From: a virus
Lineage: Duplodnaviria; Heunggongvirae; Uroviricota; Caudoviricetes
Length of the DNA: 64,000 bases
Reading direction: 5' to 3' (one strand)
IMG/VR virus record: IMGVR_UViG_3300042006_000024
Positions 6,134 through 54,658 of this stretch are shown one piece after another (within the stretch, counting starts at the first letter, position 1; each line of letters begins with the position of its first letter). The notes beneath the pieces were generated by a model, which saw only the letters and a program-made list of their open reading frames with translations, ran no database searches and was not told the origin of the DNA. A program made the translations under genes and the position numbers.

Positions 6134-6150
6134 GGTAATATTCCTTGAAT

Positions 6151-6180: not shown

Positions 6181-6193
6181 CAGTTAGTTGATA

Positions 6194-25181: not shown

Positions 25182-25283
25182 ATCCTTACCATGTTTTGAA
25201 ATTGATAAATAGTATATAACACTAACAACACACTCTCCTACTGCTAACTGTAAAGAGAACAACGAGATAGAAGGAACAACCTG

Positions 25284-35190: not shown

Positions 35191-35271
35191 ATAAAACCAT
35201 TTACTGGGTTTGACTCGTGCTGAATCGATCAATAAATAATCTGAATAGAACTCATAACAGATAATAGTCAT

Positions 35272-35721: not shown

Positions 35722-35734
35722 AGAGGTGTAACAG

Positions 35735-36775
35735 ATGGCCGGCGATATTATTGATTCGATCAGCAACACTTATGGCAGCGTGAAAGCGTCAGCCAAAGAG
35801 ATGTATGACGATTTCATGCACCCTAAAGGTGCGACTTCATATGCAGCACCACCAGAAAAGAAAATTACTCGGATCAAAAGACTTGAGGATAAACTTGCCT
35901 CAGGGAAACGTCAATACAAATTTCTGAAGTTCCCGTTGGACGTCGATACCGAAGCAACACAGAACATCATGCTGATCAACATCAACGCGATCAGTGGTTC
36001 CCAGTATGCAGGTAAGCAGTACAAGGTTATTGAGGGTGATGAGGCACGCATGGAGCAGAAAGGCTCTAACAGTCTTGCTCGGCACTTCTCAGGCAATACC
36101 GTACGCATCGACACTGCGATTGCACTACACATGCCACCATCGATTCAGACATCGTATCAGTCTACATGGAACGCGTCTGATTTAGGGGTTGCAGGGGCTG
36201 TGATGGATGCCTGGGGTGGTTCTGGTGACATGTCTTCGTTTGAAGCATGGAAGAATGCATGGAACACATCGAAAGAAGCGCTACCTGAAATCCTGAAAAT
36301 GACTGGGATTAAGGTTGCTGATGCAGTGCTACCTGGTAAGATCGCTGATGCATATACATGGGCCAATCAGATGGTTGAGAACCCGTATGTTGAAGTGCTG
36401 TTTAAAGGTGTGTCGAACCGTACCTTCAACTTCACGTTCAAGTTCATCCCGCGTAGTCCAGCAGAGCAGATTGCAATCAAAGAGATTGTTGACACCCTGA
36501 AGTTCCACAGAGCACCAGAAAAGAAGTTGAACATGTCTAACCTCTACTGGAGCTACCCTTCGACGTTCGACATCCAGTTCCTCAAGAAGGATGGTCAAGA
36601 AAACGAATGGTTGTTCAAGATCTCCACATGTGCATTGACCGACTTCAACGTACAACAAGGTTCAGATAGCCACTATGCATCGTTTGCCGACGGTAGCCCG
36701 TTCTCCACAACGATCAGCTTGAGCTTTACCGAACTTGAAGTGCTTGATAAAAACCGTATTTTGCAGGGCTTCTAA
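35735..36775 (+). CDS. baseplate/tail structural protein (346 aa)
   Basis: First gene of the baseplate operon. Confidence 0.45.
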   Translation: MAGDIIDSISNTYGSVKASAKEMYDDFMHPKGATSYAAPPEKKITRIKRLEDKLASGKRQYKFLKFPLDVDTEATQNIMLININAISGSQYAGKQYKVIEGDEARMEQKGSNSLARHFSGNTVRIDTAIALHMPPSIQTSYQSTWNASDLGVAGAVMDAWGGSGDMSSFEAWKNAWNTSKEALPEILKMTGIKVADAVLPGKIADAYTWANQMVENPYVEVLFKGVSNRTFNFTFKFIPRSPAEQIAIKEIVDTLKFHRAPEKKLNMSNLYWSYPSTFDIQFLKKDGQENEWLFKISTCALTDFNVQQGSDSHYASFADGSPFSTTISLSFTELEVLDKNRILQGF

Positions 36776-36777
36776 TC

Positions 36778-37266
36778 ATGAGTTACTTCACAGCTTTTCC
36801 GTTAGTGCGCTATGACAACTCGTTGCAGGTCAACTTGACTCGGCGTGTTGGTGTGTCGCAAACAATGAAGAATGATCCTGCTTATTACTATGAGCATAAC
36901 ATCGGTGATGGTGATACTCCAGAGAACCTGGCTGATCGCTTTTACGACGATGTCAACCTTGCATGGGTCATACTTCAGTTCAATGACATCGTCAACATCT
37001 TCGAAGAGTGGCCTAAACCTCAGTGGGAGTTCGATTCATACGTCAATGCGACCTATGAAGATCCGTATGCAATTCACCACTATGTGGACTACGACGGTAA
37101 AGAAATTGACTTCAGCACTGCAAAGCCGTGGGAGCGAATCCCGATCACTAACTATGAACACGAAACCGAGTTGAATGACGCTAAGCGCAAGATCAAGCTG
37201 GTACTGCCTGAGTTGGTCAACACAATCGTTAACCGTCATAAAGAAATAATCCAAGAAGGTGTGTAA
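36778..37266 (+). CDS. baseplate-associated hypothetical protein (162 aa)
   Basis: ORF 2 nt after the upstream stop. Confidence 0.45.
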   Translation: MSYFTAFPLVRYDNSLQVNLTRRVGVSQTMKNDPAYYYEHNIGDGDTPENLADRFYDDVNLAWVILQFNDIVNIFEEWPKPQWEFDSYVNATYEDPYAIHHYVDYDGKEIDFSTAKPWERIPITNYEHETELNDAKRKIKLVLPELVNTIVNRHKEIIQEGV

Positions 37267-37269
37267 CTA

Positions 37270-38502
37270 ATGGCTCAGTACTCACGTAGCGGCCAATTCG
37301 AACTGGTCAAGGCAACAATCTTGACCAACACGTCGAACCCTGTTGAACTCGACCTTGCAACTGCATTCACTGATGCGGTCATCTATGAGACGATCTTTGA
37401 CTACACAATGTCAGGGAACATCTCGTTTGTTGACACAAACAACCTAGTGCAGAAGTACGGCCTTGGTCGCGGTGAGACTGTGACCTTGCAGTGGTACACT
37501 ACAGGGATTGAAAATTCACCAATCACGGTAACTGGTCAAGTGTATGACTTGCAGGGACCGATGCCTTTAGGTGATCAAGCATCTGGTTTCACTCTGCACT
37601 TTGCATCACCTGAGTTCATCGCATCGATCCAGCAGAAGCTCTTTACGGGCCATAACGAGGCGTGCTCCGACATCGTTGAGCGTATCCTCAAGAAGATCAG
37701 CAGACAAGCGCCAGCGAAGCCTAAGGGGCTCACAGTGACACGCACGCGCAACATTGAACACATTGTCTTCAGTGGTCATACGCCTGATCGTGGTATCGAC
37801 ATGTGCTGTAAACGTGCAATCTCGACAACTGGCATGAATGGTTATTTGTTCTATGAGGACAACTCAGAGTTTCGATTTGTACCGATTGAGGAACTCTATG
37901 CTCAGGATCCTGTCATAGAGTATGTCTATCGTAGTGCGCCAACCTACAACGATGTCGAGAACGCCCACGAAGAGAGCTTCAACACCTTTCAGGAATTCGA
38001 GATCGAAGAGTCAAACAAGTTCATTGATGACCTGCATGATGGTCAGTATGGTTCAGCACACGGTTTCTTGTCGATCATGGATAAGAGCATGACCGTACAC
38101 AACTACAATGCCAAGGCTAAGTTCGACAGCAGCAAGTCGCTTGGTAAAGCTGCCGTATCACTGGATCAGAACTTCAACAGCGAGAACAGTGACCGTGTAA
38201 CCCTGCATTATCGCAACACTAAACAGGATAATGAAGGTAGCATTGTCGATAACAAGCTGAAGCTCCTCAAGTCAAATTCATTCTCGGCGAACATCGGTAT
38301 CTTTGGTAACTCATCGTTGAAAGTTGGTACTACGATGAAGACCTCGATCCCGTCGAACTCGAAAGAATCAATGACACCAAATGCAACAGACAACATCTCA
38401 GGTAAGTTCCTGATTGCCGAGATTAAACATATCCTACAACCTAAATCGTACAATCAACGAGTGAAGTTGCTGAAAGACTCGTTTGAAGAGGTGACATCTT
38501 GA
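37270..38502 (+). CDS. putative baseplate hub protein (gp27-like by position)
   Basis: 410 aa, immediately upstream of the gp5-like gene and overlapping it by 4 nt. Confidence 0.35.
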   Translation: MAQYSRSGQFELVKATILTNTSNPVELDLATAFTDAVIYETIFDYTMSGNISFVDTNNLVQKYGLGRGETVTLQWYTTGIENSPITVTGQVYDLQGPMPLGDQASGFTLHFASPEFIASIQQKLFTGHNEACSDIVERILKKISRQAPAKPKGLTVTRTRNIEHIVFSGHTPDRGIDMCCKRAISTTGMNGYLFYEDNSEFRFVPIEELYAQDPVIEYVYRSAPTYNDVENAHEESFNTFQEFEIEESNKFIDDLHDGQYGSAHGFLSIMDKSMTVHNYNAKAKFDSSKSLGKAAVSLDQNFNSENSDRVTLHYRNTKQDNEGSIVDNKLKLLKSNSFSANIGIFGNSSLKVGTTMKTSIPSNSKESMTPNATDNISGKFLIAEIKHILQPKSYNQRVKLLKDSFEEVTS

Positions 38503-40031
38503 TTGACACAAATAACTTCACACCTTGGTTTGGTGTCATTGAGAACGTTGACGACCCGTTGAAGAATGGTCGTTACCAAGTCAGGGTGTTTGGCTACAAC
38601 TCGGCCAACCCTGGCATGCTCCCTACAGACAACTTGCGCTGGTTCTCTAGCGCAGTGTCAAACAGTGCTGGCTCTCAAAGCGTTGGTCATAGTCCTACTG
38701 GTTACAAAGTCGATTCATTCGTATTCGGTTACTACATCGACCCTGATCATCAAGAAGGTGTCATTCTTGCGGCTATTGCTTCAATGCCAGGCGGTCTGAA
38801 TGATGTCAGTGAGATTGCAACGGGTGAAGGTGGCACGTATCTTGATGAGTTGACCAACAACGCGGTCAAGGGTATTCCAGATGCTCGTGGTGAGACTTGG
38901 GATGAACCAACCTCACGTTATGCAGTCGTCTATCCAAAGAATCAGGTGTATCAGTCTGAGTCGGGCCATGTCATTGAATACGATGATACGCCAGGTGCTG
39001 AGCGCGTCATGATCTTTCACCGTTCAGGCTCATTCGATGAGTTTCACCCTGACGGCAAGCGTGTGTCGAAGGCTGTCAACGATTCGTTTGATATTCACTT
39101 GGGTGGTCATAACATCTTCGTCAGTGGTAGTCTGAACCTTGTTGCATCGGGTGACTATCGTGTCAGTGTCGGTGGTGAGATGTATGTCAAGGCAACCAAA
39201 GTGACATTTGATACACCTGAAGTCGATATCTACGGCATCAGCAGTGCAAATGATCACATGAGCGGTAATGTCAGCGGTGGCTTCCACATTCACCCTGAGA
39301 CCAATCAGCAAGAAACATTGTCGCCGCTTGGCTACTCGCTTGAGTTCACACCGACACCTAAAAACAACTTCTCGTTTCAGTATGAAGAAACACCTTACAC
39401 GCCCGAGATTGTTGATATGGCGGTGTCTAACGGTTTCATCACGCCTGAAGAAGGTGAACGTGTTATGACCGAAGAGCCGATCATTGAAAGTATCGCAGAC
39501 GAACCACCACCGGCTGAAGTCAAACCGGTGATTGCTGAGTGTGGTTTGGCGATTACTAACGGTAAAGTGGATTATTCAGTCAAGTTGTCACCAAACTTTA
39601 CGCTCCGTCAGTTGTCTTTAGGTGCTGTAGTCTCACAATATGCGATCAAAGATCAGAACGGCCTGACTTCAGAGCAGATCATCTGTAACCTGAAGAACCT
39701 CGCTGAGAACGTTCTAGAGCCCTTGAAGGCGAAGTATCCAAACATGATCGTCACCTCTGGCTTCAGAACTGGTAGCGGCAAGAGTCAACACTTGAAAGGT
39801 GAGGCCGCCGATATTCAATTCAAGAATGCATCAAAGGGATTCTACTTCGAAGTTGCGAAGTGGGCTAAAGACAATCTACCGTATGACCAGTTTCTCCTTG
39901 AGTACAAATCGACAGGGACCAGAATGCCCTGGCTACACTTTTCACTCACACGCGGTCGCAGCCAACGTGGCCAAATCATGACGTTCTTTAATCACTCAAA
40001 GTACGCAAACGGATTAGTACAAGTAGCTTAA
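38499..40031 (+). CDS. baseplate central spike (gp5-like N-terminal OB domain) with C-terminal M15-family zinc peptidase domain
   Basis: WFGVIENVDDPLKNGRYQVRVFG matches the gp5 OB N-terminus. C-terminal SGFRTGSGKSQHLKGEAADIQF is an M15 H..G.A.D zinc site. Confidence 0.65.
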   Translation: MIDTNNFTPWFGVIENVDDPLKNGRYQVRVFGYNSANPGMLPTDNLRWFSSAVSNSAGSQSVGHSPTGYKVDSFVFGYYIDPDHQEGVILAAIASMPGGLNDVSEIATGEGGTYLDELTNNAVKGIPDARGETWDEPTSRYAVVYPKNQVYQSESGHVIEYDDTPGAERVMIFHRSGSFDEFHPDGKRVSKAVNDSFDIHLGGHNIFVSGSLNLVASGDYRVSVGGEMYVKATKVTFDTPEVDIYGISSANDHMSGNVSGGFHIHPETNQQETLSPLGYSLEFTPTPKNNFSFQYEETPYTPEIVDMAVSNGFITPEEGERVMTEEPIIESIADEPPPAEVKPVIAECGLAITNGKVDYSVKLSPNFTLRQLSLGAVVSQYAIKDQNGLTSEQIICNLKNLAENVLEPLKAKYPNMIVTSGFRTGSGKSQHLKGEAADIQFKNASKGFYFEVAKWAKDNLPYDQFLLEYKSTGTRMPWLHFSLTRGRSQRGQIMTFFNHSKYANGLVQVA

Positions 40032-40058
40032 ACTCACAATAATTAAAGGGAAACCAGC

Positions 40059-40502
40059 ATGTCAAGTACTATAACACTCGAACGCGCTTACACAGACTCA
40101 GCGACTATCGGCAAGATGTACATGCCTAGTGGCATCGTATTCGATACGATTGAACTACCATGGGAGAGCAATGAACCAGAAGTCTCTTGCATCCCTGAAG
40201 GTAGCTACACCCTCAACAAACGCTCAAGTGGCATCGTCAATCGCACGTCACGTGGTAAATACACCGCAGGTTGGGAAGTGACAAACGTTGAAGGTCGAAC
40301 CTACATCATGATCCATATCGGTAACACTGTATCGAACTTTCAGGGCTGTATTGGTATCGGTGAAGGTTTAGGTGTTATTGACGGTAACTGGGCAATCCTG
40401 CAAAGCTCAGTGTCATTTGATAAATTCATGCGCGAGATGGAAACATCTGAAGATTGGAAGTTGACGATTCGCGTCCGCACACAACGAGGGTTTAACCAAT
40501 GA
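40059..40502 (+). CDS. DUF5675/YkuD-like (L,D-transpeptidase-fold) protein
   Basis: IPEGSYTL...HIGN...GCIGI resembles the YkuD HxG...GC motif. Confidence 0.4.
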   Translation: MSSTITLERAYTDSATIGKMYMPSGIVFDTIELPWESNEPEVSCIPEGSYTLNKRSSGIVNRTSRGKYTAGWEVTNVEGRTYIMIHIGNTVSNFQGCIGIGEGLGVIDGNWAILQSSVSFDKFMREMETSEDWKLTIRVRTQRGFNQ

Positions 40503-40870
40503 GACGTGACATTGACCTGTCATTCAAGAAGCATCCTTTGACAGGAGACCTTGCGACCAAAACAGGCAGTTCTGCTATTCGTCAATCACTGATCAATATT
40601 GTCCGCACCAACTTCTATGATCGCGGCTTTAACGTTGAGATGGGTACGAACCTTGATGCTTCGATGTTTGAGAATATCGGCCTGACCACAGCGCGACAGA
40701 TTCATGACAACATCGAGAACGCGATCCGTAACTTTGAACCACAGGTCGAGTTGATTGATATTGAGGTTCGGGATACTGGTGGTAATGAAGTTTCGGTGAA
40801 GATCTATTACACCGAACTCAACAACCCTACTACACAAGCCTTGATCGTGGACTTGAGTCGCATTCGGTAA
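40499..40870 (+). CDS. baseplate wedge protein gp25/GPW family
   Basis: DLSFKKHPLTGDL...IRQSLINIVRT...EPQV is a typical GPW/gp25 signature. 123 aa. Confidence 0.75.
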   Translation: MRRDIDLSFKKHPLTGDLATKTGSSAIRQSLINIVRTNFYDRGFNVEMGTNLDASMFENIGLTTARQIHDNIENAIRNFEPQVELIDIEVRDTGGNEVSVKIYYTELNNPTTQALIVDLSRIR

Positions 40871-40913
40871 TCGGGTGGAGTGACCTAATAAATAGCTGTA
40901 CGACAACTATTGA

Positions 40914-42659
40914 TTGGGTCATGCTCTCATGTCTTCACTTATTACATCATACGATCCACAGGAACTCAAAGCTTCCTTAATTGAGTACATGCAGGCGAAA
41001 CCTGATTTTGCCGACTTCAACTATGAAGGTTCGACGATCAATACGATCATTGACCTTCTGGTGCGCAATACTCACTACATCGCCTATATGGCAAACATGG
41101 TCAGCTCTGAATCGTTTCTTGATTCGGCACAGTTGCGGGCCAACGTTGTCAGTCATGCTCAGAAACTCTCCTATACACCTAAGTCGCGCACTGCAAGTAC
41201 AGTGGTCGTTGACCTTGAAGTCCTGCCGTCAGCACAACCAACTGAGTTCAGCCTCGTAGCCGAGAAAGGTTCCGTGTTCCTCAACACAATTGGTAACGTG
41301 ACCTATTCGTTTACCAATACAAGCGAGATCACCCTACTCAAGACAATTGAGAACAAGTTCATTGCGAGTAATGTTGAACTGAAGCAAGGTCAGTTGCGCT
41401 CTCAGCGTTACCTGTATAACTCCAGTACAAAGACTATCGGCATCATGAATGCTGACATCGATACAGCGACTGTGCGCGTGTTTGTGACTGATCCGGTGAC
41501 AGGCGAGATCACTGAGTATCTGAAGGTCGAAAACATCGTAGACGTCGGCACAGACAGCGCTGTGTTCTATCTGTTCGAGAACACACTGGGTAAATACGAC
41601 ATTCAGTTTGGTCGCAACGTTCTAGGTGCTGAACCGATAAACAACTCGGTCGTTCGAATTGAATACGTGGCTGTTGAAGCCGAACACGCAAACGGTCTGA
41701 AAACCCTGATTGCAGGTACACCGATTCAAGGTTACTCGAACATCAAGGTCACTGTGGTTACCGAGGCTTACGGTGGTGCTGAGAAGAGCGACATTGACTT
41801 CATCAAGTTCCTTGCACCAAAGATCTGGGAAACTCAGAACCGTGCAGTACGTGACAAAGACTATGTGGCGATCATGTTGCGTGAATTCACCTTCATCAAG
41901 TCTGCAATCGCCTGGGGTGGTGAAAAGAACGTTCCGCCGTACTATGGTCGAGTGTTCCTATGTGCAATCCCACAAGACGGCTTTGTTATCGCCGATACAG
42001 TGAAACAGACCATCGAGAGACGTATTACCGAGTTCTCCGTTGCTTCGATTACGCCTGAAGTGGTTGACGCGTCATACATCGGTCTTCAGTTGGATATCGG
42101 TATTCTGTATAACGCCAATCAGACGACCGATACGTTTGCTCAGACTGTTGCTGCGGTGAAGACTGCTGCGAACACATACAATCAGAACAACCTGCGTCTG
42201 TTTGACTTCTGGTACAACGATAGCGAGTTGTCCCGTCAAATCACCAAAGCAGCGCCGTCGATCTACTCGATTGAAACGCACAAGAAGGCCTTTTTTGACA
42301 CGCCAATCAACCGCAATGTGATGAAGCACTACATTGCCGAGTTCCTGAATGAAGTTGAACCTGGCTCTCTGGTTGTGTCGGATGTTGTATTTGACATCAA
42401 TGCGACAAGTCAAAAGGTGCTTGATGATGGTGCAGGCAAGATCATCAAACAGATTATCAAAGACGGTATAACTACCAATGAGACAATCGGTAGCATCAAT
42501 TACACCACGGGCTATGTCGAGTTCAATGCACTGTTGCTTGACCCTGGCACGCTGCGCATGACGGTCACTCCTGTAGCAAGCAACTTCTACACTGATCGGA
42601 ACTATGTGGTGTACATTGACACTATCAATGTTGATTTGCTAACAACCAGAAAGGTTTAA
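40914..42659 (+). CDS. baseplate J-like protein (gp6-like)
   Basis: 581 aa, directly after the gp25-like gene. Confidence 0.5.
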   Translation: MGHALMSSLITSYDPQELKASLIEYMQAKPDFADFNYEGSTINTIIDLLVRNTHYIAYMANMVSSESFLDSAQLRANVVSHAQKLSYTPKSRTASTVVVDLEVLPSAQPTEFSLVAEKGSVFLNTIGNVTYSFTNTSEITLLKTIENKFIASNVELKQGQLRSQRYLYNSSTKTIGIMNADIDTATVRVFVTDPVTGEITEYLKVENIVDVGTDSAVFYLFENTLGKYDIQFGRNVLGAEPINNSVVRIEYVAVEAEHANGLKTLIAGTPIQGYSNIKVTVVTEAYGGAEKSDIDFIKFLAPKIWETQNRAVRDKDYVAIMLREFTFIKSAIAWGGEKNVPPYYGRVFLCAIPQDGFVIADTVKQTIERRITEFSVASITPEVVDASYIGLQLDIGILYNANQTTDTFAQTVAAVKTAANTYNQNNLRLFDFWYNDSELSRQITKAAPSIYSIETHKKAFFDTPINRNVMKHYIAEFLNEVEPGSLVVSDVVFDINATSQKVLDDGAGKIIKQIIKDGITTNETIGSINYTTGYVEFNALLLDPGTLRMTVTPVASNFYTDRNYVVYIDTINVDLLTTRKV

Positions 42660-42660
42660 T

Positions 42661-44313
42661 ATGGCCGCTAAAGCGATCCAACATTCGATTCCGGGCCAAC
42701 TGTCCTCGCACATCAACGAAGAGTACCCGCTCTTCGTTGAGTTCCTGAGTGGGTACTATGAATGGCTTGAGGGTACAGACAGCCCCTATTATCAACTGCG
42801 CAACCACTTGTCAGCACTCGACCTGAAAGAATCGCTTGACGGGTATGCTACGCACCTGAAAAACGAATACTTGTCGACCATCCCTGAGAAGGTGTTGGCC
42901 GACAAAGAAATCCTGATCAAGCATTCGAAACAGTTCTTTCAGTCGCTCGGTAGTGAAAAGTCGTTTCAGTTCCTGTTCAAGATCCTCTATAACGAGGACA
43001 TCGAACTGTACTACCCGAAAAACGACATCCTGCGTGCGTCTAACGCAACATGGATCGATAACGAAAACCTGATGTACGTGTCGAACAGCGGCAACGTAAA
43101 CAACTTCCTGTACCGTCGTATTACGCAGACGCGTGAGCCGTTCCCAGGGGTGTTTGAGTACGCCACAGCAACAGTTAACCGCATCATCAACCGCTATGCC
43201 AACAAGTTCAACTTTGCCGAGTTGTACCTGAACGACATTGTTGGTACATTCGATTTGAATTACCCTGTTGTTGTTGACAATATCACTGAATGGATTTTGC
43301 CGATTGCTGATGGTGTCGAGGTCATTTCACCTGGTCTGAACTACACGGTCGACAACAACTTGACTTATGCGGGTGATTCGACATTCGACATCACTGTTCA
43401 GGCAACTGGGCCTGGTAGCGTTGATACCCGTTATACCACGATCATGACTGCAAGTGATTTGACCGTCAAAGTGGGTGGCGTTGAGATTACTGGCTACACA
43501 TACGACGGCAAGATGCTTGCGCACGCCAGTATCTTGCAGGGCTCTACAGTGACGATCAGTTTCCCTGTGTATGCAGGTTTCTTGTCGATTGACCGTGTAG
43601 GTGCACTTGGTCAGATTGTTGATGTGAATTTGATTGATACGCCGTTCGGTATTGTTACGCCGCAGCTCTACACATCTGCCGATGGTGGTTCAGGTGGTTC
43701 GATTCGCATCATCCCTGCACTGACCAAACGCATCGAAGGTTACTTCCTTGACAATGAAAGCTTCCTGTCGACCAACAAAGTGTTGCAGGATTCTGAATAC
43801 TATCAGGACTATTCGTATGTGATCAAAGCAGGTATCGGCGTTGATCGCTACCGCGATGTGGTGATGAATGTTCTCCACCCTGCTGGTCTGAAGATGTATG
43901 GTGAAGTGAACATCATCGAGTTCATCAAGTTGATCATTCGCGATGCCAACTTTACGGTCACGGTGAATTTCATGGGTGAGATTTCGTTCCAGTCGTCTGT
44001 TTTCCTATACAACCGAGTCGGCTTCGTTCAGGACTTCATGTATGCGGAAACAGAAGGGACGTACAAAACAAATGACTTCAAAGACATTGTCATTGCTGAT
44101 GTGTTCGAGGGTGTTAAGCCGCTCAACCGTCACTTTACAAACGTTACTGTCCTGACACCAGGTGGCTATGTTTACGCAGGCTATTTCGATGCGGGTTATA
44201 ACACTGATCTTGTGACTGATGATCCGTCATACATTGATGAGACTTACATTGAAGACGGTTACGAATACATCGAGCTTGACGGTGCTACAGCGTTCGGCCA
44301 TTACACTAGTTAA
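42661..44313 (+). CDS. baseplate wedge / tail-fibre connector protein (550 aa)
   Basis: ORF with a 1-nt gap after the gp6-like gene, before the fibres. Confidence 0.35.
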   Translation: MAAKAIQHSIPGQLSSHINEEYPLFVEFLSGYYEWLEGTDSPYYQLRNHLSALDLKESLDGYATHLKNEYLSTIPEKVLADKEILIKHSKQFFQSLGSEKSFQFLFKILYNEDIELYYPKNDILRASNATWIDNENLMYVSNSGNVNNFLYRRITQTREPFPGVFEYATATVNRIINRYANKFNFAELYLNDIVGTFDLNYPVVVDNITEWILPIADGVEVISPGLNYTVDNNLTYAGDSTFDITVQATGPGSVDTRYTTIMTASDLTVKVGGVEITGYTYDGKMLAHASILQGSTVTISFPVYAGFLSIDRVGALGQIVDVNLIDTPFGIVTPQLYTSADGGSGGSIRIIPALTKRIEGYFLDNESFLSTNKVLQDSEYYQDYSYVIKAGIGVDRYRDVVMNVLHPAGLKMYGEVNIIEFIKLIIRDANFTVTVNFMGEISFQSSVFLYNRVGFVQDFMYAETEGTYKTNDFKDIVIADVFEGVKPLNRHFTNVTVLTPGGYVYAGYFDAGYNTDLVTDDPSYIDETYIEDGYEYIELDGATAFGHYTS

Positions 44314-44340
44314 ATAAGACTAAACGAATTCGAGGTTACT

Positions 44341-46212
44341 ATGCTAGCAGACAAAACAAACGTAGTTAAGCGGTCGAGCAAAGGCACGCCCTTAACCTAT
44401 GTTGAAATGGATCGCAACTTCTCCGAACTTGTGAATGCGATTGACGACGTTGATGCACTCACAACTGATGTCAATACACTCACAACTACCGTTGATGAGT
44501 TTGTGACTGATGTCGGTGATCCTGATGTAGGGTCAACCCTCGTTGGGCATAAACGCACTGATATAGCTGACACTATTTCAAACGTCAATATGATGTTGTC
44601 GAGTCTTATAGTCAACATCTGGGAGTATGCCAACTATATTACAAGCAAGCCTACATCATCGCCTTCTACATGGGACTGGACACCTGCAACCGCAGCAGCT
44701 TCAGCGTTTGTGAAGTCTAAGGGTGGCGGTTGGATTCGTTATCCTGCTGGTAGCTATCCTCATACCAAGATGGTTAAACAACACGGCGTGAGTTGGATGG
44801 GTGACGGTTCAAGCGTAACTTACATCACCACACTGGCATCGACGTCCGCTGTGCCTTATGGCCTCATTGAAGTTGAAGCAGGTGCTGTATCGTCGTCTCA
44901 CATGGTTGGCATGCACATCATGGGTAGCGCAGTTGCAGGCTTTGCTCAAGCAACTGTCAACGCAACTCAGTGGGGCATGTACGCCAAAGCTCAATGGGAT
45001 GCAACGTACCAGCATGGTGGTCTGTGGTATTCTGAGTTCCGTGATGTTCGATTCTCTAACTTCAACTACGGAGTGTGGACTCGTGGTGGTTATACGATCA
45101 ACAACTACAAACGCCCAATTCAATTCGTGACGTTCGACAAAGTATTCATCCAAGTACCTACAGGTGGTGAAGCTCTTCGTATGACAGGGCAGCACGGTCA
45201 GATTGAATTCCGTGGTGGTTCTGCTGAAGGTCGCGACGGTGTTGTTGCCGCCCTCTGCATCAATATCGGTATGGACCCTGATCCAGCGACTATGGCTGAT
45301 AACGCTGCCACTGGTCAAGGTGAAAACACATCAGATGCTCCTGGCACTGGCAGTGCTGTGCAAGCTCCGTACAACGTCAACTTCGGTAACGGTTTCTCTA
45401 TCCAGAAGTCCCGTAAAGGTATTGCTGCTAAGAACTGCCGTCAAATCTCGGTTCAAGGTGCTTGGGTCGAAGACATTGCAGAGTTGATTGACTTGTCTAC
45501 TAACGCTCACTTGACGTTTGAGTCAAACCACTTGGCTAACGCGGCTGACGGCTCTGTTGGTGGTACAGCGGGTACAGGTTATCTGTTCAAGATGGCCACT
45601 AGCTCGGCATTGGAGTTCAAATCGACTTCTGATGTTATTGGTACAGTTGATAACTACCTTGAGCCGACTACTAACTTGAATAACCTTCGCAGTCTGAAAA
45701 TAGAAGGTCTTGCTTTTGGTGATACTTATCAGAAGTTTGTGGCTGCGGGTTACAAGACTATGGTTCTCACAGGTTCGGCCATCGACATTGGCGCTCACAA
45801 GTTTGTGGTTATCAACCCGGCGCCTGGTGACCCTAGTTTGAAGTTGGATATCCTGAAAGCTACTATTGCTCCAGGTGAGCGTGTAACTATTCGTGCACTG
45901 ACTGGGCCTATCACAGTGGTCAACACTGGCAACATCTCGTTGAACGGTGAACCTGCAATCTGTCTACCACTGTCAGGCGCGATGGTCCTTGAACGACTCT
46001 ATCAAGTCATTGGCAACGTTGAGTGGGTATTGATATCAGTAACCGAACAACGCGCTACTGCCGCCCCTACAGACGGCTTCTACTACCCACAGGCACACAG
46101 AGTCTGGCGTCGCGATGCAGCAGCTTCTGGACCAATGGGTTGGATTTGCACAACAGCTGGACTGGCAGGTACAACTGCTGTGTTTAAAGCGATGCCTAAC
46201 CTGGCAGCGTAA
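44341..46212 (+). CDS. tail fibre / tailspike protein 1
   Basis: 623 aa. N-terminal anchor shared with fibre 2. Gly/Ser/Thr-rich beta-rich body (YPAGSY). Confidence 0.6.
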   Translation: MLADKTNVVKRSSKGTPLTYVEMDRNFSELVNAIDDVDALTTDVNTLTTTVDEFVTDVGDPDVGSTLVGHKRTDIADTISNVNMMLSSLIVNIWEYANYITSKPTSSPSTWDWTPATAAASAFVKSKGGGWIRYPAGSYPHTKMVKQHGVSWMGDGSSVTYITTLASTSAVPYGLIEVEAGAVSSSHMVGMHIMGSAVAGFAQATVNATQWGMYAKAQWDATYQHGGLWYSEFRDVRFSNFNYGVWTRGGYTINNYKRPIQFVTFDKVFIQVPTGGEALRMTGQHGQIEFRGGSAEGRDGVVAALCINIGMDPDPATMADNAATGQGENTSDAPGTGSAVQAPYNVNFGNGFSIQKSRKGIAAKNCRQISVQGAWVEDIAELIDLSTNAHLTFESNHLANAADGSVGGTAGTGYLFKMATSSALEFKSTSDVIGTVDNYLEPTTNLNNLRSLKIEGLAFGDTYQKFVAAGYKTMVLTGSAIDIGAHKFVVINPAPGDPSLKLDILKATIAPGERVTIRALTGPITVVNTGNISLNGEPAICLPLSGAMVLERLYQVIGNVEWVLISVTEQRATAAPTDGFYYPQAHRVWRRDAAASGPMGWICTTAGLAGTTAVFKAMPNLAA

Positions 46213-46220
46213 CAACACCG

Positions 46221-46250
46221 AAGCCTGCTTAGTTGCAGGCTTTGTCTTTT
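46221..46250 (+). terminator. intrinsic terminator after fibre 1 (probably leaky)
   Basis: aagcctgc-ttagtt-gcaggctt then TGTCTTTT. Confidence 0.45.
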
Positions 46251-46287
46251 GTGGTAGTAAATAGTACATAATAAATTCGAGGTTACT

Positions 46288-48534
46288 ATGCTGTCAGATA
46301 AAGCGAACATACTCCTAAGGGCGATTAAGGGTTCTGAACTTACCCACGTCGAAATGGACACGAACCTGGACGAGATCAAAAAGGTCATTGATGATGTGCA
46401 TGCGCTGAATGACGCCGTTGAGGCCGATTCTCCGTTGAAAGCGCCATTGGCGAGTCCTGCGTTCACAGGGCTGCCCACTGCCCCTACGCCATCGGTTGAA
46501 GATAATTCTGATCTCCTGGCTACGACTGCCCACGTTCATAGCGCAGTCGACGTTCTAGGGGCTGACATTCTGAGCCGCTTGAAGTTGCGCCCTGAAACGT
46601 TCGGCGCAGTGGGTGATGGTGTAGCTGACGATACCGCCGCATGGAACTTGCTGCTAGATGCAATGTTGCTGACCAAGCGAAAAGGTGAATGTGTTCCAGG
46701 TGCACAGTACAAGATCACTTCAGTCCTAACGCGCACGCTGGTTGATACCGATGTGTTTGACCTCGATATGAATGGCGCGACGTTCATTCAGGGTGGCAAC
46801 AATAGCGTCCTTGTACTGACTAACAGCGTTAATGGTACTGTCACATCAGTAACCGAGAATGTCCAAATATCGTACAACTTGGGCAACGGCGCGACCAATA
46901 CCTATGTGATGAAAGTTACATCAGTTGGTCACGGCTTCACGACTCCTGGTCAGATTGGTAAGATCTTCAGTGACGATATCGTTCCTGACTTCGATGGCTC
47001 TAATCAATACTGCGGTGAGTTCTTCACTGTTAGTGCAATTGAAAGCGCCGATATCTTCTACACCTTTGGCGTCTTCGATGAAACATATCTGACCAACGTC
47101 AAAGTTTGTCGGCCGTCGGGTGCTAAAGTCAACATCGACAACTTCGCAGGTAAATCAACTTGGGCTGATTCGGTCACTGCGAGCTTCTGCACTATCTCGG
47201 GTTTGATTAATCCGGTCTTCGGTGGTACTGTTCGAGCGAATGACATAAACGCACCGTTCTTGAACTTTACAAGTACATACCGTGCCAAGCTGAGCAAGAT
47301 CATTGGTCGCAATATCAAGAACCGCCCTGACTTGGGTGCTTATGGTTATTTGATTAACGACAGCGCAGCCTACTACAGTGACATTTCAGGCATCGATTGC
47401 ATCTTTGCACGTCATGATTACACCACAAGTTCCCCATCAGCAGTCGCGGGCGATGACAAACCGTTCCTTCGTGGTCGTACAATTGGTTCAGTCGTTCGAG
47501 ACAGCGTAGGTAACTCGTTTGATACCCACAGTCCATGCCTGCGTATCACCTTTGAAAACTGCAAGCCAGTTGACTCACATCGTGGTTACGACTACGGTGG
47601 TGCTGGTATTCAGATTCGCGGTAACGATTGCCAAATCATCAACTGCGACGTATCACATTCGAAGATTGGTGTTGCTCAAAGCAGTGCAAGTAAAACGGGT
47701 CCAGCCAAACTGCTGATCGATGGGTTAAAGTATCGTGGCCCGAACGGTCATACACCAGTCGTGATTAACGGTATCACTGCATTCGAAACCATCGTTACTT
47801 TCCGTGGTGACATTGAAAGTCAAGCAAGCTCGATTTTCGAAGTGACTAACGCTACTCTGATCGTCAATGGCACGCGTGTGACAATGCGTCCAACTGATAA
47901 CGGTGCAGCAATGGTCAACTTGAACACTGGTGGCAATCTTGAATGGCAGGGTGGTTCACTCAACATCACCAATGGCAACAGCCACAAGATCGTTGCACAC
48001 CTTGATACTGCAACCACAGCGAAAGTTGATGGTCTGTCAGTTCGCGGTGTTACTGGTCGTCTGTCGTACCTTGCTACTTCAGCATCACAATACGCAATTG
48101 AATCACGCTTCACTAACATCCAACTTGATGCTGCATTGCCAGGCAACCCGTTCTTAGGTTATGAAGCTACATTACCTAAAGTCAGTGCTGAGTTCTGCAT
48201 AGGCTACAACTTGCGTCCATTGGCGTATCGTGTGTTCACGTACGGTACTACGGGCAACCAGGCAATTGATTTGCAGTTTGCAGGCAATCAGTCGATATTC
48301 CTTCGAGTTGAAGCGACAGCAACTGGTGTTGTAATTAACTCATTGACTCAGGGTGCGTTCGCTGGTCAGCGTTTGATTATCAACAACCGCAACTCATCGA
48401 CGTTCTCGCTGAACGTGGCAAACAACTCAGGTGGGTTATTGACAATGGCTGCAAGTGCTACACTGACAGCTGGTCGAGGTATTACGTTAGTGTGGGATGG
48501 TAGCACATGGCGTTCTGCTGATAACCACGCATAA
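46288..48534 (+). CDS. tail fibre / tailspike protein 2 with pectate-lyase-superfamily beta-helix
   Basis: FGAVGDGVADDTAAWN motif typical of right-handed beta-helix depolymerases. 748 aa. Confidence 0.65.
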   Translation: MLSDKANILLRAIKGSELTHVEMDTNLDEIKKVIDDVHALNDAVEADSPLKAPLASPAFTGLPTAPTPSVEDNSDLLATTAHVHSAVDVLGADILSRLKLRPETFGAVGDGVADDTAAWNLLLDAMLLTKRKGECVPGAQYKITSVLTRTLVDTDVFDLDMNGATFIQGGNNSVLVLTNSVNGTVTSVTENVQISYNLGNGATNTYVMKVTSVGHGFTTPGQIGKIFSDDIVPDFDGSNQYCGEFFTVSAIESADIFYTFGVFDETYLTNVKVCRPSGAKVNIDNFAGKSTWADSVTASFCTISGLINPVFGGTVRANDINAPFLNFTSTYRAKLSKIIGRNIKNRPDLGAYGYLINDSAAYYSDISGIDCIFARHDYTTSSPSAVAGDDKPFLRGRTIGSVVRDSVGNSFDTHSPCLRITFENCKPVDSHRGYDYGGAGIQIRGNDCQIINCDVSHSKIGVAQSSASKTGPAKLLIDGLKYRGPNGHTPVVINGITAFETIVTFRGDIESQASSIFEVTNATLIVNGTRVTMRPTDNGAAMVNLNTGGNLEWQGGSLNITNGNSHKIVAHLDTATTAKVDGLSVRGVTGRLSYLATSASQYAIESRFTNIQLDAALPGNPFLGYEATLPKVSAEFCIGYNLRPLAYRVFTYGTTGNQAIDLQFAGNQSIFLRVEATATGVVINSLTQGAFAGQRLIINNRNSSTFSLNVANNSGGLLTMAASATLTAGRGITLVWDGSTWRSADNHA

Positions 48535-48579: not shown

Positions 48580-49089
48580 TTACGAAACAGTAATGACAGT
48601 GGTGTCAGTAACTGCGTTGTTGCTCACAGAACGTACTGTGATAGTGGCAGTACCAGAAGTCACACCGGTAACCAGACCAGTTGCAGACACAGTGGCGACA
48701 GCAGGCGCTGACGATGTGTAGGTCACAGCTTTGTTCCATGCTGAGACTGGCGCGACAGTCGACGTCAGTTGCTGAGTGCCCGCTACGGCGATAGTAGCAG
48801 TCGCTGGCAGCATGTCGATGCTAGTCACAGGCAGATAGGTCGTAGGAGAATCGAAGAACGATGTGATGTTCGCAAAGTTCAAGTTCACTGCGGTGCCCTG
48901 GAAGTCCAACTGGAGTTGAGTGCTTGTCAGAGTAACAGTGGTTGCTTTCAAGAACGCTTTGATGCGATCACGAATCCTCTTCTGCGAAGACAGTAGGACA
49001 TTGGCCCCAGACACTTTCCAACCTTTATCGGTTAGAACCACCGTCTTGTTATTGAGTCGTGGTTTGACAGCCCATTGTGGATATTTCAT
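48580..49089 (-). CDS. Ig-like (Big_2-type) domain protein, possible capsid or tail decoration protein
   Basis: C-terminal ATVSATGLVTGVTSGTATITVRS Ig-like repeat. I prefer the ATG at 49089 with a GGAG RBS. The ORF track starts at GTG 49122. Confidence 0.55.
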   Translation of the reverse strand: MKYPQWAVKPRLNNKTVVLTDKGWKVSGANVLLSSQKRIRDRIKAFLKATTVTLTSTQLQLDFQGTAVNLNFANITSFFDSPTTYLPVTSIDMLPATATIAVAGTQQLTSTVAPVSAWNKAVTYTSSAPAVATVSATGLVTGVTSGTATITVRSVSNNAVTDTTVITVS

Positions 49090-49122
49090 GTTGCGGTGCT
49101 CCATCTTATAAGATTGTAACAC

Positions 49123-49130
49123 TATTTATA
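49123..49130 (-). promoter_or_regulatory. T4-type late promoter TATAAATA
   Basis: Exact octamer on the minus strand, about 30 nt upstream of the Ig-like gene start. Confidence 0.5.
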
Positions 49131-49153
49131 AGACAGAGCTTTGTGAAGGTAGG

Positions 49154-49459
49154 TTATTTAGCGTTATTACTGATCAGCAACATACGCTCATCATCACAGT
49201 ACAAGTAGGAATCCCACAACAGAATACCTTCACCCGTCTGAGTCATGCGACCCAGGACATTACGATCATCGAGACGCTTGATCACTCCGATATGCGCGTT
49301 GATGACAATCGTATGGTTGCCAGCGAGTTTCCTGATCAGCCAGTGGCGAAAGTTTGCAAGCATTGTTGCACTGCTGAACGGCAGAATATCACCAGAGCCA
49401 GCAGGTGGTGCTTCGCGCAAGTCGAGGTAATCGGGTTCTGTTTGAGACCATGAAGTCAT
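49154..49459 (-). CDS. hypothetical protein (101 aa)
   Basis: ORF. Confidence 0.45.
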   Translation of the reverse strand: MTSWSQTEPDYLDLREAPPAGSGDILPFSSATMLANFRHWLIRKLAGNHTIVINAHIGVIKRLDDRNVLGRMTQTGEGILLWDSYLYCDDERMLLISNNAK

Positions 49460-49482
49460 TGCATATTTCCTTAGTTTGAGTA

Positions 49483-49773
49483 TTACGCGGCAGAGCTAAC
49501 GTCTTGGGCATACGGAGCCAGGAAGCGTTCGTCGATAGCTTCGTGTTGGTGATGGGACTTGTACTTGCGACCGATGATGGCGACATCATAGTCATTGACC
49601 TGGGTATCGTAGTTGAATGTCGCACGAATAACACCGACCAGACCGTACAGCGATTCGTCTGCTGCCAAAACATTCGTCTCACCGATGAAAGAGACGCCTT
49701 CTGGGTATGTGATTCGGACGAAGTCATTTGCTTTGAATTTGGGAGTGTTCATATGGTGCAATTCCTTTCTCAT
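49483..49773 (-). CDS. hypothetical protein (96 aa)
   Basis: ORF. Confidence 0.45.
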   Translation of the reverse strand: MRKELHHMNTPKFKANDFVRITYPEGVSFIGETNVLAADESLYGLVGVIRATFNYDTQVNDYDVAIIGRKYKSHHQHEAIDERFLAPYAQDVSSAA

Positions 49774-49835
49774 GATAAAAAGTCTAACTCACGAGCGCAT
49801 TCTAGCAAGTGAGTTAGCACAGTACAAGCCTTTAG

Positions 49836-50117
49836 TTACAGCGGTTCTTTCAGGGTACAGTGGCCCTTGGTGTTCAACAGCTGGACAGCATACCCACCCG
49901 AGGTTTTTACACCTACAGGTTGATAGAAATTGATTTTGTACTCAGCCTCGATAGGGGCATGTACCTTGATCACAAAGCACGTTAACCCACCGTTTTGGGC
50001 TACGGCTCTTTCTATCGTGTCTTCGCCTATATCTTCGGCCAGTCTAGCCAAAGCACTGGCTGGGGTATCGGCAACGGCCCAGTTGTAGACGCATGATGCG
50101 TAGTAATGGAACTTCAT
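49836..50117 (-). CDS. hypothetical protein (93 aa)
   Basis: ORF downstream of the promoter at 50161-50189. Confidence 0.45.
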   Translation of the reverse strand: MKFHYYASCVYNWAVADTPASALARLAEDIGEDTIERAVAQNGGLTCFVIKVHAPIEAEYKINFYQPVGVKTSGGYAVQLLNTKGHCTLKEPL

Positions 50118-50160
50118 GATGAGTGCTCCGAGTGATGACGATGGTGTAGCTCATGAGTCG

Positions 50161-50189
50161 ATTATGGCTCAATCACTACACCTTGTCAA
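50161..50189 (-). promoter_or_regulatory. sigma70 promoter TTGACA-17-CATAAT with conserved CGACTCATGAG leader
   Basis: Minus strand: -35 at 50184-50189, -10 at 50161-50166. Confidence 0.5.
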
Positions 50190-50193
50190 CACC

Positions 50194-50814
50194 TCAGACG
50201 TGACTCACCTCAAAGTTTTCATACACCACCCAACCACCTTCAGACTCAGGACCCTCGTTGTCGATGACATAAGCGCCTGCTTTGAAGTAGAACGGGAACT
50301 CGGTCCACGCCGCATCGACAGTCACTGCATACACCAAGCCGTTAAGCTTGATCTGCAAGACATCGTCAGTGCCCATTGCCAAGCTATAGCTGAACGACTC
50401 GCCAAGCTTGCAGGGTACTGTGAGGACTTTGACGGCGGTGCCGCTAGGCTTCAGTCGCAAGTCAACCCGCGCAACGCCATTCCACCATGTAACCATCAGG
50501 AATGGGTTAGGTGCTTTGTGCGCGTGAATTTGACCGATGATGACTTTACCTGAACTCGGCGCAAGCTCGACACGAACCGTGCCTTGCATGGTGTGAACAG
50601 CTTCCCCTGCTACCCAGTTATAAGACTCGGCACTGTCAGGAAGCGTTTCACGACTTTCAGTGCGTGGACTAGAGCTAGAACCAGATGTGTCACCTAGTAC
50701 TGAGCACCAATAGTTGGTGTGGCCTTTAGGATCGGTCCACACCAGATTGGCTGGAGGTTTCTCAGGGTACAGATAGACCTGACCGTGTGCAGTGATATTG
50801 CCAAAGCTGAACAT
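50194..50814 (-). CDS. polysaccharide lyase family 7 (alginate-lyase-like) protein
   Basis: PL7 signature blocks RTESRE, QIH and YFKAGAY in the right order. 206 aa. Confidence 0.55.
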   Translation of the reverse strand: MFSFGNITAHGQVYLYPEKPPANLVWTDPKGHTNYWCSVLGDTSGSSSSPRTESRETLPDSAESYNWVAGEAVHTMQGTVRVELAPSSGKVIIGQIHAHKAPNPFLMVTWWNGVARVDLRLKPSGTAVKVLTVPCKLGESFSYSLAMGTDDVLQIKLNGLVYAVTVDAAWTEFPFYFKAGAYVIDNEGPESEGGWVVYENFEVSHV

Positions 50815-50867
50815 CTGATAAAACTCCTACGTTAATGGATACCGCAGGATTATTTATCAGATCGTAC

Positions 50868-51269
50868 TTACTCAGCATTCTCGAACAGTGCAGCAGGTGA
50901 CAGGCCGTAGTTTATGGCAATACGTTGCATGTTCTCCAATACCTGTTCGATCAGCTGGTTACTGTCATGTGCGTTCTGAAGTGTTTGAATCAGATTTTGG
51001 TGCGCGTTTGGTGCGTAGCCTTCTTTGACAATTTCGAGCCATCCCATTCCTTCTGACGGATCGAAGATAGCCAAGTACTCATCGTCTGCAATCAAACAAC
51101 CTGCGGCACACATAGTCCCACCAGTGCCACGATATGCGCAAGTGCCGGTGGTGATACCACTATCCTCTTCTTTCATCGAACGCTTACCTTGCTTGACCAG
51201 ATGACGTGCAACCTGATCGAACACTTGTTGCGCTGTTGCATCTTTCAATGTAGCCAGTGTGATAGTCAT
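50868..51269 (-). CDS. Cys-motif domain protein (family copy 4)
   Basis: VARHLVKQGK...CAYR...MCAAGCLIADDEY...LQNAHD. Confidence 0.6.
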   Translation of the reverse strand: MTITLATLKDATAQQVFDQVARHLVKQGKRSMKEEDSGITTGTCAYRGTGGTMCAAGCLIADDEYLAIFDPSEGMGWLEIVKEGYAPNAHQNLIQTLQNAHDSNQLIEQVLENMQRIAINYGLSPAALFENAE

Positions 51270-51295
51270 ACTTTTCTTCCTTCGAAATGGGTTGG

Positions 51296-51769
51296 TTAGA
51301 CGACAGCGCCGAAGCGGTCGAAGTGTTCAAGCGCGAGATCGAGGTACATCATCCACGCTGCACGAATGGTGAGTTTCTTGTAGCGGTAATCACAGAAGCC
51401 TTCTTTTTCATGTGGCTGCCAGGTGCTGAAATCAACAGTGCCTTCATGGTAAACGAGAACTGATGCCGCACGCTTTTCAAAGCGTGCGTTCACTTCTACA
51501 AGTGGAAAACCAGCGGGTACAGGCGTGTGGGTCCAGATGTTAACCTCAGTCTTAGGTGCAGTGCGACTATCCCAAATGATTGGATCATCAGCGTTAACAA
51601 CACCGTCACGGATGAGGATATATTCAACATCGTATTGACTGCGATCTTTCAGCTCTTGCATTGCGAAGTCAATCGCTTTCTGAACACCACCCAACCATTT
51701 ACAAAACACGAATGTCTGCTTAGGGTTGCGTGTGGCTATTGCAAAGGTATAACCGATAGGCTTGCTCAT
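51296..51769 (-). CDS. hypothetical protein (157 aa)
   Basis: ORF. Confidence 0.5.
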   Translation of the reverse strand: MSKPIGYTFAIATRNPKQTFVFCKWLGGVQKAIDFAMQELKDRSQYDVEYILIRDGVVNADDPIIWDSRTAPKTEVNIWTHTPVPAGFPLVEVNARFEKRAASVLVYHEGTVDFSTWQPHEKEGFCDYRYKKLTIRAAWMMYLDLALEHFDRFGAVV

Positions 51770-51963
51770 GCTTGTTCCTTAGGAATGGTGTGACCGATTT
51801 TCAAACGTGAGCCCAGCCAGTAATGCTTTTCCATGCGCTGAAGATCATTGATGCTGATGGTCGACATTTCTTTCCAATGCTTGAGTGCATACGCCTCAAG
51901 CTCGTTTTCAGGAAAGAGGGTGATGATACCATCACCCGTCATTTCAGCTCGCATTGAAAGCAT
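51766..51963 (-). CDS. hypothetical protein (65 aa)
   Basis: ORF with an ATGA overlap. Confidence 0.4.
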   Translation of the reverse strand: MLSMRAEMTGDGIITLFPENELEAYALKHWKEMSTISINDLQRMEKHYWLGSRLKIGHTIPKEQA

Positions 51964-52330
51964 CCAGGTTGAGTTCGTAGGTAGTGCCTACTTCTTTCAT
52001 CTTCACAAGGACGCTTTCAATGAGACCAGACCGATCGTGTGCGCGTTGCAGAGCGATGATCAAGTTTTGGTGGTGCTCAGGAACAGTCTGATTGGATACT
52101 AATCGATCCCAAGTACCGCCACCGTTTCCAGCGCCATTGTCGAATTGTGGCAGATATTCATCATCAGCGATGAGGCAACCTGCCGCACACATCAAGCCAT
52201 TGACACCACGGTAGAGGCACATTTGTGAACCAGGATTGACCGAACGCTTACCTTGTTTGATCATATGCGTGACAACCTGGTCAAACACTTGTTGAGCGGT
52301 TGCATCTTTCAGGGTGGCCAAAGTAATCAT
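51944..52330 (-). CDS. Cys-motif domain protein (family copy 5)
   Basis: N-terminal 18 aa almost identical to copy 4. CLYR...MCAAGCLIADDEY. Confidence 0.6.
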   Translation of the reverse strand: MITLATLKDATAQQVFDQVVTHMIKQGKRSVNPGSQMCLYRGVNGLMCAAGCLIADDEYLPQFDNGAGNGGGTWDRLVSNQTVPEHHQNLIIALQRAHDRSGLIESVLVKMKEVGTTYELNLDAFNAS

Positions 52331-52737
52331 TTCGAAAGCTCTTCCAGGTTGAATTGAAGTTTGTGTTTCTTGGCGAAGTGTTTGAGACGACGAGGGTAGT
52401 CAATTGCACCCACTTCATCAATGTCCCAGCGGTCTACGTTCATGTCATGCATCTTCTGGAGCATGTCGATGAAGTACGCATGCTTACTCGGGACTTGCTC
52501 AGGGAACGCCTCAGAGCAAGACAACCAGCTGCCGCGTTTGTCGAACTTGATGTCGTACTCTTCATCGGTCATGAGACAGCCTGCCGCACACATCAGACCA
52601 TTACCTGGACGGTACTGACACATACCTGCGTCGTTCGTGGCGCGGACTTTCTGTTTGATCAAGTGACGAGCCACCTGATCGAAGATCTGCTGTTCGGTTG
52701 CGTCTTTCAAATTTGCGAGTGTGATTTGCATGATCAT
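52327..52737 (-). CDS. Cys-motif domain protein (family copy 6)
   Basis: VARHLIKQK...CQYR...MCAAGCLMTDEEY...LQKMHD. Confidence 0.6.
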   Translation of the reverse strand: MIMQITLANLKDATEQQIFDQVARHLIKQKVRATNDAGMCQYRPGNGLMCAAGCLMTDEEYDIKFDKRGSWLSCSEAFPEQVPSKHAYFIDMLQKMHDMNVDRWDIDEVGAIDYPRRLKHFAKKHKLQFNLEELSK

Positions 52738-52961
52738 TATCCCAGGAAGGCGTGAGTGTCGGTTGGCGAAGGAGCTTTCGGCATTGGCATCCAGTGACTG
52801 TAGCGGGTCTTGAAGAACTCGTCCTTCTTGACAATCAGGAAAGTAGGAACACCGATCCAGATTTGTTCAGCGATACTGAACATGAAGACGATATCACCGT
52901 CAGCCTTGGTAGGCATACACTTTGCGGTTTCGAAATAGTACTGCTGTTGATGGCAAATCAT
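52737..52961 (-). CDS. hypothetical protein (74 aa)
   Basis: ORF. Confidence 0.4.
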   Translation of the reverse strand: MICHQQQYYFETAKCMPTKADGDIVFMFSIAEQIWIGVPTFLIVKKDEFFKTRYSHWMPMPKAPSPTDTHAFLG

Positions 52962-53049
52962 GATAAAGGGCTTCTCACTTGCTAGGCTAATGTAAAAGAA
53001 TGTAGACGTTATACGCTAAAACAGGGGTTAATGCAAAGGATTCTTTACG

Positions 53050-54629: not shown

Positions 54630-54658
54630 ATTATGGTGCAGTCGACTCACACTGTCAA
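54630..54658 (-). promoter_or_regulatory. sigma70 promoter TTGACA-17-CATAAT with conserved CGACTCATGAG leader
   Basis: Minus strand: -35 at 54653-54658, -10 at 54630-54635. Paralogous to the promoter at 50161-50189. Confidence 0.5.

Follow-up and report, generated by a model that had tools for sequence, protein, structure and literature searches.

A free-standing PL7 lyase in a pf16-like phage, a candidate soluble alginate lyase carried in several Pseudomonas phage contexts

In enzymes of polysaccharide lyase family 7 (PL7), a histidine serves as general base and a tyrosine as general acid, with a glutamine neutralising the C-5 carboxylate and a conserved arginine binding it (PMC9345997). The mechanistic reference of the family is A1-II' of Sphingomonas sp. 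A1 (PDB 2CWS/2ZAA), which belongs to a bacterial alginate-assimilation system, and a second solved alginate lyase is the chromosomal PA1167 of P. aeruginosa (PDB 1VAV), a signal-less chain of 222 residues. Biochemical knowledge of phage alginate lyases goes back to the 1970s, yet in a 2017 review the corresponding genes are still given as 'not determined' (PMC5380687). Those of Pseudomonas phage PT-6 (37 kDa) and of an A. vinelandii phage (30-35 kDa), both from phages of alginate producers and both smaller than is usual for tailspikes, are among the entries marked 'ND' (PMC5380687). The same review recognises soluble phage depolymerases freed at lysis as a category, and includes tailspike depolymerases of the P. 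putida phages AF (gp19) and phi15 (gp17), i.e. trimeric virion spikes of ~78 kDa that are annotated as pectin lyases (PMC5380687). The closest named phage protein to the one described here is gp116 of phiK7A1 (QNR53904.1), a phage of plant-associated Pseudomonas; it is uncharacterised, as are the 33 PL7 genes reported among viral CAZymes in a soil-virome preprint. In the literature on a characterised phage PL7 of this clade, and on phiK7A1, Arace01 and Ep020, no functional study was found.

The gene that we analyzed lies in a 64,000-nucleotide stretch of Caudoviricetes DNA, hereafter the window. A megablast search with positions 49000-53000 against phage records gave no match, meaning that there is no close sequenced relative at the DNA level, and protein searches were therefore used. 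The window's NrdA (18502-20790) is 82% identical to that of the P. putida phage pf16, and its baseplate wedge protein is 65% identical to the pf16 counterpart. By these identities the window is assigned to a relative of pf16, which belongs to the genus Chakrabartyvirus at the periphery of the T4-like phages. The structural block (35272-48534, plus strand) contains the head closure, tube cap and wedge proteins, a gp5-like hub lysozyme, a gp6-like wedge and two spikes, compared with four fibre/spike genes in pf16. pf16 itself lacks a PL7 gene, and only five phage records match the window's PL7 protein at all.

The PL7 gene itself is an ATG-initiated reading frame on the minus strand (50194-50814), with a product of 206 aa (22.5 kDa) that forms a single beta-jelly-roll domain. 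The gene is preceded by a ribosome binding site read directly from the sequence (AGGAG, 50824-50828, minus strand), 9 nt 5' of the ATG, which is kept in four of five related PL7 loci; in the fifth, L006, AGAGGA is found instead. The earlier note had recognised three PL7 signature blocks in this reading frame, and they are present in the expected order: RTESRE (residues 51-56; 50647-50664), QIH (residues 95-97; 50524-50532) and YFKAGAY (residues 176-182; 50269-50289), all on the minus strand. A match to a PL7 profile had been proposed there as a test, and Pfam PF08787 (Alginate_lyase2) scored 115.1 bits, with a gathering score of 29.7 (E=5.3e-33, match over positions 37-225 of the 225 in the profile). 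Among PDB sequences the top match was PA1167 (1vav, E=7e-25), A1-II' (2cws) matched at E=5e-20, and the glucuronan lyase 7nde from Trichoderma matched at E=2.8e-8. Compared with three related phage copies, the gene has a dN/dS of 0.07-0.27. These values together with the profile and PA1167 matches place the occurrence of the three blocks far above chance, and the dN/dS combined with invariant catalytic residues indicates, as far as sequence comparison can tell, a functional gene under purifying selection.

An AlphaFold2 model built from an alignment of 54 homologous sequences, with identity down to 33%, reached a mean pLDDT of 95.2 and a pTM of 0.91, and is all-beta over residues 6-205, i.e. 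the beta-jelly-roll (beta-sandwich) of PL7. When it was compared with the PDB by Foldseek, ranks 1-41 were all occupied by PL7 structures, the best being again 1vav (TM 0.87, E=5e-18). The active site could be mapped by counting residues in the PDB alignment and from the PDB title 'H191N/Y284F' of A1-II'. Residue R51, with a role in carboxylate binding, corresponds to R146 of A1-II', Q95 to Q189, H97 to H191 and Y182 to Y284. The RXEXR motif, the counterpart of R146-R150 in A1-II', has R51 and R55 invariant among the 54 homologues, with E53 conserved in at least 90% of them; Q95 and H97 of the Q(I/V)H motif are invariant in the same set, as are Y176, K178, G180 and Y182 of YFKXGXY. The proposal made from the sequence, of a PL7 lyase that is free-standing and belongs to the accessory region of a phage having two tailspike-like genes, is thus backed by profile, fold and conserved catalytic residues.

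PA1167 and the phage protein share the single beta-jelly-roll, the RxExR, QIH and YFKAGxY motifs, short cleft loops and a Pseudomonas background, whereas identity over the structural alignment is only 29% and the phage chain has ~15 residues fewer, its loops behind the QIH strand being shorter. A1-II' is 26-28% identical, and its cleft loop 'LPSSGKI' is nearly the same as 'APSSGKV' of the phage protein; its broad M/G specificity, however, is not to be assumed for the latter. The one deviation from the conserved family motifs is found in the third block, for which the family consensus is YFKXGXYXQ (PMC9345997). The terminal glutamine, present in PA1167 (YLQ) and A1-II' and followed by Asp in characterised PL7 enzymes (Y-x-Q-D), is here Ile184 (codon 50263-50265), as in at least 90% of the 54 homologues; the block reads YFKAGAYVI, continuing as YVID, throughout the phage and prophage clade. 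This glutamine is a conserved non-catalytic position and not a family-defining one, and since CAZy families are defined by sequence similarity, the change to Ile is a clade-specific variant and not an exclusion from PL7. Substrate specificity may nevertheless differ from that of the characterised enzymes, given Ile184.

Among other resources, NCBIfam gave no match, and PHROGs gave only a weak one (E=1.3e-3), to a family of unknown function; the phage PL7 clade is thus not captured by PHROGs v4. A fold search of BFVD retrieved PL7 proteins of giant viruses only and no phage entry. As an annotation, PL7 is correct but routine, its family, fold and mechanism being known and a homologue, that of phiK7A1, already bearing the PL7 label in GenBank.

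According to the earlier note, the gene stands behind a sigma70 promoter in an early-type setting, and on the promoter the sequence does not bear this out. The only strong sigma70-like site nearby (TTGACA-17-CATAAT, 11/12; 50161-50189, minus strand) begins 5 nt 3' of the PL7 stop codon, serves the next gene (49836-50117) and marks the 3' boundary of the PL7 unit. The same site, at 50189-50161 in reading direction, is identical in the related locus L002 and absent in L006, where the downstream gene differs. No sigma70 promoter was found within 3.8 kb upstream of PL7, the nearest comparable site on that side being an intergenic TTGACA-17-CATAAT at 54630-54658 (minus strand), roughly ten genes away. 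Overall, promoter-like counts were not above shuffle expectation. The two sites, which are both intergenic and share hexamers and spacing, resemble the early-promoter consensus of pf16, TTGACACC...CATAAAAT, and probably delimit early transcription units of the accessory block.

What does precede PL7, in its 53-nt upstream spacer, is ATAAATAAT (50849-50857, minus strand), a motif of the T4 late-promoter type with an ATAAATA core that ends 36 nt 5' of the ATG; it makes the early-type setting doubtful for this gene. The T4 late promoter, TATAAATA, has ATAAATA as its core. According to the pf16 paper, TATAAATA is found ahead of three structural genes, among them that of the major capsid protein, and the phage has a late sigma factor of the gp55 type (PMC5587285). 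The window contains six ATAAATA sites against a shuffle mean of 4.25, a raw count not above chance, for which reason only their placement and conservation are informative. All six, namely 574-580(-), 25205-25211(+), 35232-35238(+), 40888-40894(+), 49123-49129(-) and 50851-50857(-), fall in non-coding DNA, which makes up roughly 6% of the window, and each has a co-oriented start codon 18-72 nt downstream. The genes that follow them encode, in the same order, a gp2-like DNA end protector, an unknown protein of 151 aa, head closure, a gp6-like wedge, a Big_2/Ig-like protein and PL7. The end protector, the head closure protein, the wedge and the Ig-like protein are late or structural, and the head-closure gene is the first of the structural block. 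Taken together, the six sites look like the T4-type late-promoter set of a pf16-like phage, with NATAAATA as the site pattern of the presumed regulon. The 'phage specific promoters' annotated in pf16 were also considered as a motif source for the region upstream of PL7, and were left unused as they yielded no convincing consensus.

In five pf16-like loci with PL7 proteins 86-98% identical, ATAAATAA is retained at a distance of 36-37 nt from the ATG, whereas the stretch directly 5' of the motif is unrelated in each, the upstream genes being different. The conserved unit would therefore appear to be promoter, ribosome binding site and PL7 gene. Late expression of PL7 is suggested in this way by a motif of 7-9 nt. 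The gene is also the last in a block of co-oriented small genes and could be transcribed by read-through from more distant early promoters upstream, and in most other phage lineages the position of PL7 among replication genes suggests early or middle expression there.

The two spike genes (44341-46212 and 46288-48534, plus strand) encode products of 623 and 748 aa, whose conserved N-terminal anchor module of 30-40 aa is shared with the corresponding spikes of relatives. A C-terminal Phage_depo_C domain marks the 748-aa product alone as depolymerase-like, and a PDB sequence search with both spikes gave no match. Compared with the spikes in the same position in close relatives (L002 12919-15273, L006 9129-11306, L010 and L012), the 748-aa spike has only the first 30-40 residues in common, up to 90% identical, and the bodies that follow in the relatives are of other types, e.g. 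Phage_tail_beta and Pect-lyase_RHGA_epim. For the 623-aa spike, conservation is 97% in L002 and in L010 and 84% in L011, whereas L006 and L012 have a different spike in its place. In two pf16-like relatives both spikes are thus exchanged, and PL7 is still 86-98% identical. Such a pattern would be expected of spikes that recognise strain-specific surface glycans and of a PL7 enzyme whose target polymer is shared among the hosts.

Right after the spikes, on the opposite strand, lies a gene for a Big_2 Ig-like protein (48580-49122, minus strand; phrog_215, 'structural protein with Ig domain'). It has a perfect TATAAATA 18 nt before its probable ATG (49104), and its product could be a decoration protein of the Hoc type.

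By searching a large protein database, we found 131 homologues of the phage PL7, the full-length ones being of 202-249 aa and all free-standing. Many came from contigs of phage size, either 90-107 kb or about 160 kb long, and the sequences cluster largely by phage lineage. At least seven distinct Pseudomonas phage or prophage contexts could be distinguished, most of them replication modules, with PL7 proteins of 202-228 aa. Besides the pf16-like accessory block of the window, these include phages of the phiK7A1 type, in which a gene annotated 'polysaccharide lyase family 7 protein' (73% identical) lies between primase/helicase and exonuclease genes. In phiK7A1 itself, gp116 is 72.7% identical over its full length and likewise free-standing, but the phage has a genome of 98 kb and is not T4-like, and the gene lies on the replication strand with no ATAAATA in front. 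In other contexts PL7 is found behind a SNF2 helicase gene and followed by a terminator, between DNA ligase and phosphoesterase genes, adjoining a DNA methylase gene, as the last gene after three tailspike genes (L008), and next to DUF4224 and integrase genes in Pseudomonas prophages (L009 and L030). This number of contexts, mostly in replication modules, argues that PL7 is independent of virion assembly.

The L008 locus (186-6624 of an ENA ERZ2272606 contig) was the only context found that ties PL7 to the adsorption apparatus. Two of its three tailspikes have Phage_tail_beta matches, and PL7 follows 26 nt behind the last spike and is succeeded by a GC-rich hairpin. In the L009 and L030 prophages, PL7 has a moron-like position. 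A bacterial origin was considered for the roughly 60%-identical Pseudomonas homologues and rejected for the copy of Pseudomonas sp. LPH60 (L009 10001-11978, GCA_030718165.1), as this gene is part of a prophage, directly upstream of the DUF4224 and integrase genes. At least some of the Pseudomonas genome matches in the PL7 clade are accordingly prophage-borne, L009 and L030 being the two that were checked.

With regard to attachment, the absence of a fusion to a fibre anchor, claimed previously, is borne out by the predicted fold: the jelly-roll fills residues 6-205 and leaves no residues to spare for a fibre or virion anchor. The N-terminus, MFSFGNITAHGQVYLYPEKPP..., has neither a basic n-region nor a hydrophobic core, the 9-residue Kyte-Doolittle mean peaking at 0.93, and residues 6-15 already form confidently predicted strands of the jelly-roll, so that there is no Sec or Tat signal. 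A tailspike depolymerase is characterised by an N-terminal anchor or adaptor and a trimeric beta-helix body, neither of which is found in a 206-aa single jelly-roll, whereas a soluble depolymerase is a free-standing catalytic protein that lacks both an anchor and a secretion signal, as is the case here. AF gp19 and phi15 gp17, by comparison, have the same general purpose of passing Pseudomonas exopolysaccharide, but are virion spikes and not, as here, a 22.5-kDa jelly-roll with no anchor. The PT-6 and A. vinelandii phage lyases are likewise small, but their masses exceed 22.5 kDa and any link to the present clade is speculative.

The best explanation of these data, and one that we consider moderately probable, is that the gene encodes a soluble alginate lyase that is made late and freed at lysis. 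The enzyme would be transcribed, probably, from its own late-type promoter, and would build up in the cytoplasm, where the lack of an export signal should keep it until lysis releases it together with the progeny. As a PL7 enzyme it is predicted to act on alginate-type polyuronate by beta-elimination, with Q95 and R51 binding and neutralising the C-5 carboxylate, H97 taking the C-5 proton and Y182 protonating the leaving glycosidic oxygen. The likeliest substrate would be the M and MG alginate of a Pseudomonas host, to which the kinship with pf16, the closest solved relative being a P. aeruginosa alginate lyase, and the 60%-identical homologues in Pseudomonas prophages all point. Diffusing freely, the enzyme may thin the alginate that surrounds nearby cells and released virions, which would open the way for the strain-specific tailspikes to their receptors.

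Sequence alone does not separate a soluble from a virion-associated enzyme, and the evidence leans towards the former. A late promoter would fit a virion component equally well, as the same type of motif stands before structural genes, and PL7 lies 1.6 kb from the tailspike cluster; in L008, moreover, it is the terminal gene behind three spikes, with only 26 nt between and the hairpin next. It might thus be held non-covalently on the baseplate, a tailspike or the capsid and act at adsorption, a reading that we regard as rather unlikely. The whole chain is catalytic jelly-roll with no N-terminal anchor or extra domain, the gene is on the strand opposite to the structural operon, most lineages carry it in replication modules or by a prophage integrase, far from structural genes, and it stays unchanged while the spikes are swapped. 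The position among replication or early-middle genes in many lineages, the missing signal peptide and the equally signal-less chain of PA1167 could also be taken to indicate an enzyme that works inside the cell, either using polyuronate as carbon or meddling with alginate synthesis. This auxiliary metabolic or host-takeover role appears very unlikely to us, since no genes for oligo-alginate uptake or DEH metabolism were found beside PL7 in any locus examined. Furthermore, the inner membrane is where alginate is polymerised and the periplasm where it matures, and no polymer substrate is known in the cytoplasm.

The nature of the substrate is a separate matter. PL7 includes glucuronan lyases, such as the 7nde match, and the replacement of the terminal glutamine by Ile in this clade would also suit an enzyme directed at another uronic-acid polymer of the host, e.g. 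glucuronan, a capsule or an O-antigen. We consider this improbable, as the closest solved relatives, PA1167 and A1-II' (E=1e-20 to 1e-25), are alginate lyases, and as conservation of the gene in phages that differ in their spikes and hosts (P. putida-type and P. syringae) speaks for a strain-invariant substrate; among Pseudomonas exopolysaccharides, alginate is the conserved uronic-acid polymer. The same glutamine-to-Ile change is the sole point in favor of a catalytically dead fold serving only as an alginate-binding module, which is scarcely credible in view of the strongly purifying selection and of catalytic and carboxylate-binding residues that are all invariant.

With its sequence conserved across lineages and the tailspikes swapped, PL7 becomes a candidate for handling the strain-invariant alginate apart from the strain-specific receptors, and alginate is the common protective matrix of Pseudomonas, both plant-associated and clinical. 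More tentatively, and with considerable doubt on our part, the clade could represent the so far unsequenced kind of small diffusible alginate lyase, carried as an accessory cassette by unrelated Pseudomonas phages and tuned through Ile184 to O-acetylated, G-block-free bacterial alginate, a substrate that most characterised marine PL7 enzymes handle poorly. The lineages sharing the lyase cassette include T4-like phages, 100-kb lytic phages and temperate prophages. If this were true, the lyase would amount to a phage 'public good' for matrix degradation, distinct from the receptor-binding spikes, and to a ready-made scaffold for anti-biofilm enzymes. As a single-domain protein of 22.5 kDa, it lends itself to expression and might serve as an anti-biofilm reagent. 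The main additions made here to the annotation are the corrected reading of promoter and timing, and the view of the free-standing lyase as a widespread Pseudomonas phage cassette independent of the spikes.

Lastly, three paralogues of 128-136 aa are found close to PL7, at 50868-51269(-), 51944-52330(-) and 52327-52737(-). All belong to phrog_17693, of unknown function, and share an N-terminal '(I)TLA(T/N)LKDAT(A/E)QQ(V/I)FDQV' as well as a cysteine motif, 'LMCAAGCL'. Two or three copies occur in the relatives, and two in pf16 (L005 14720-15361).
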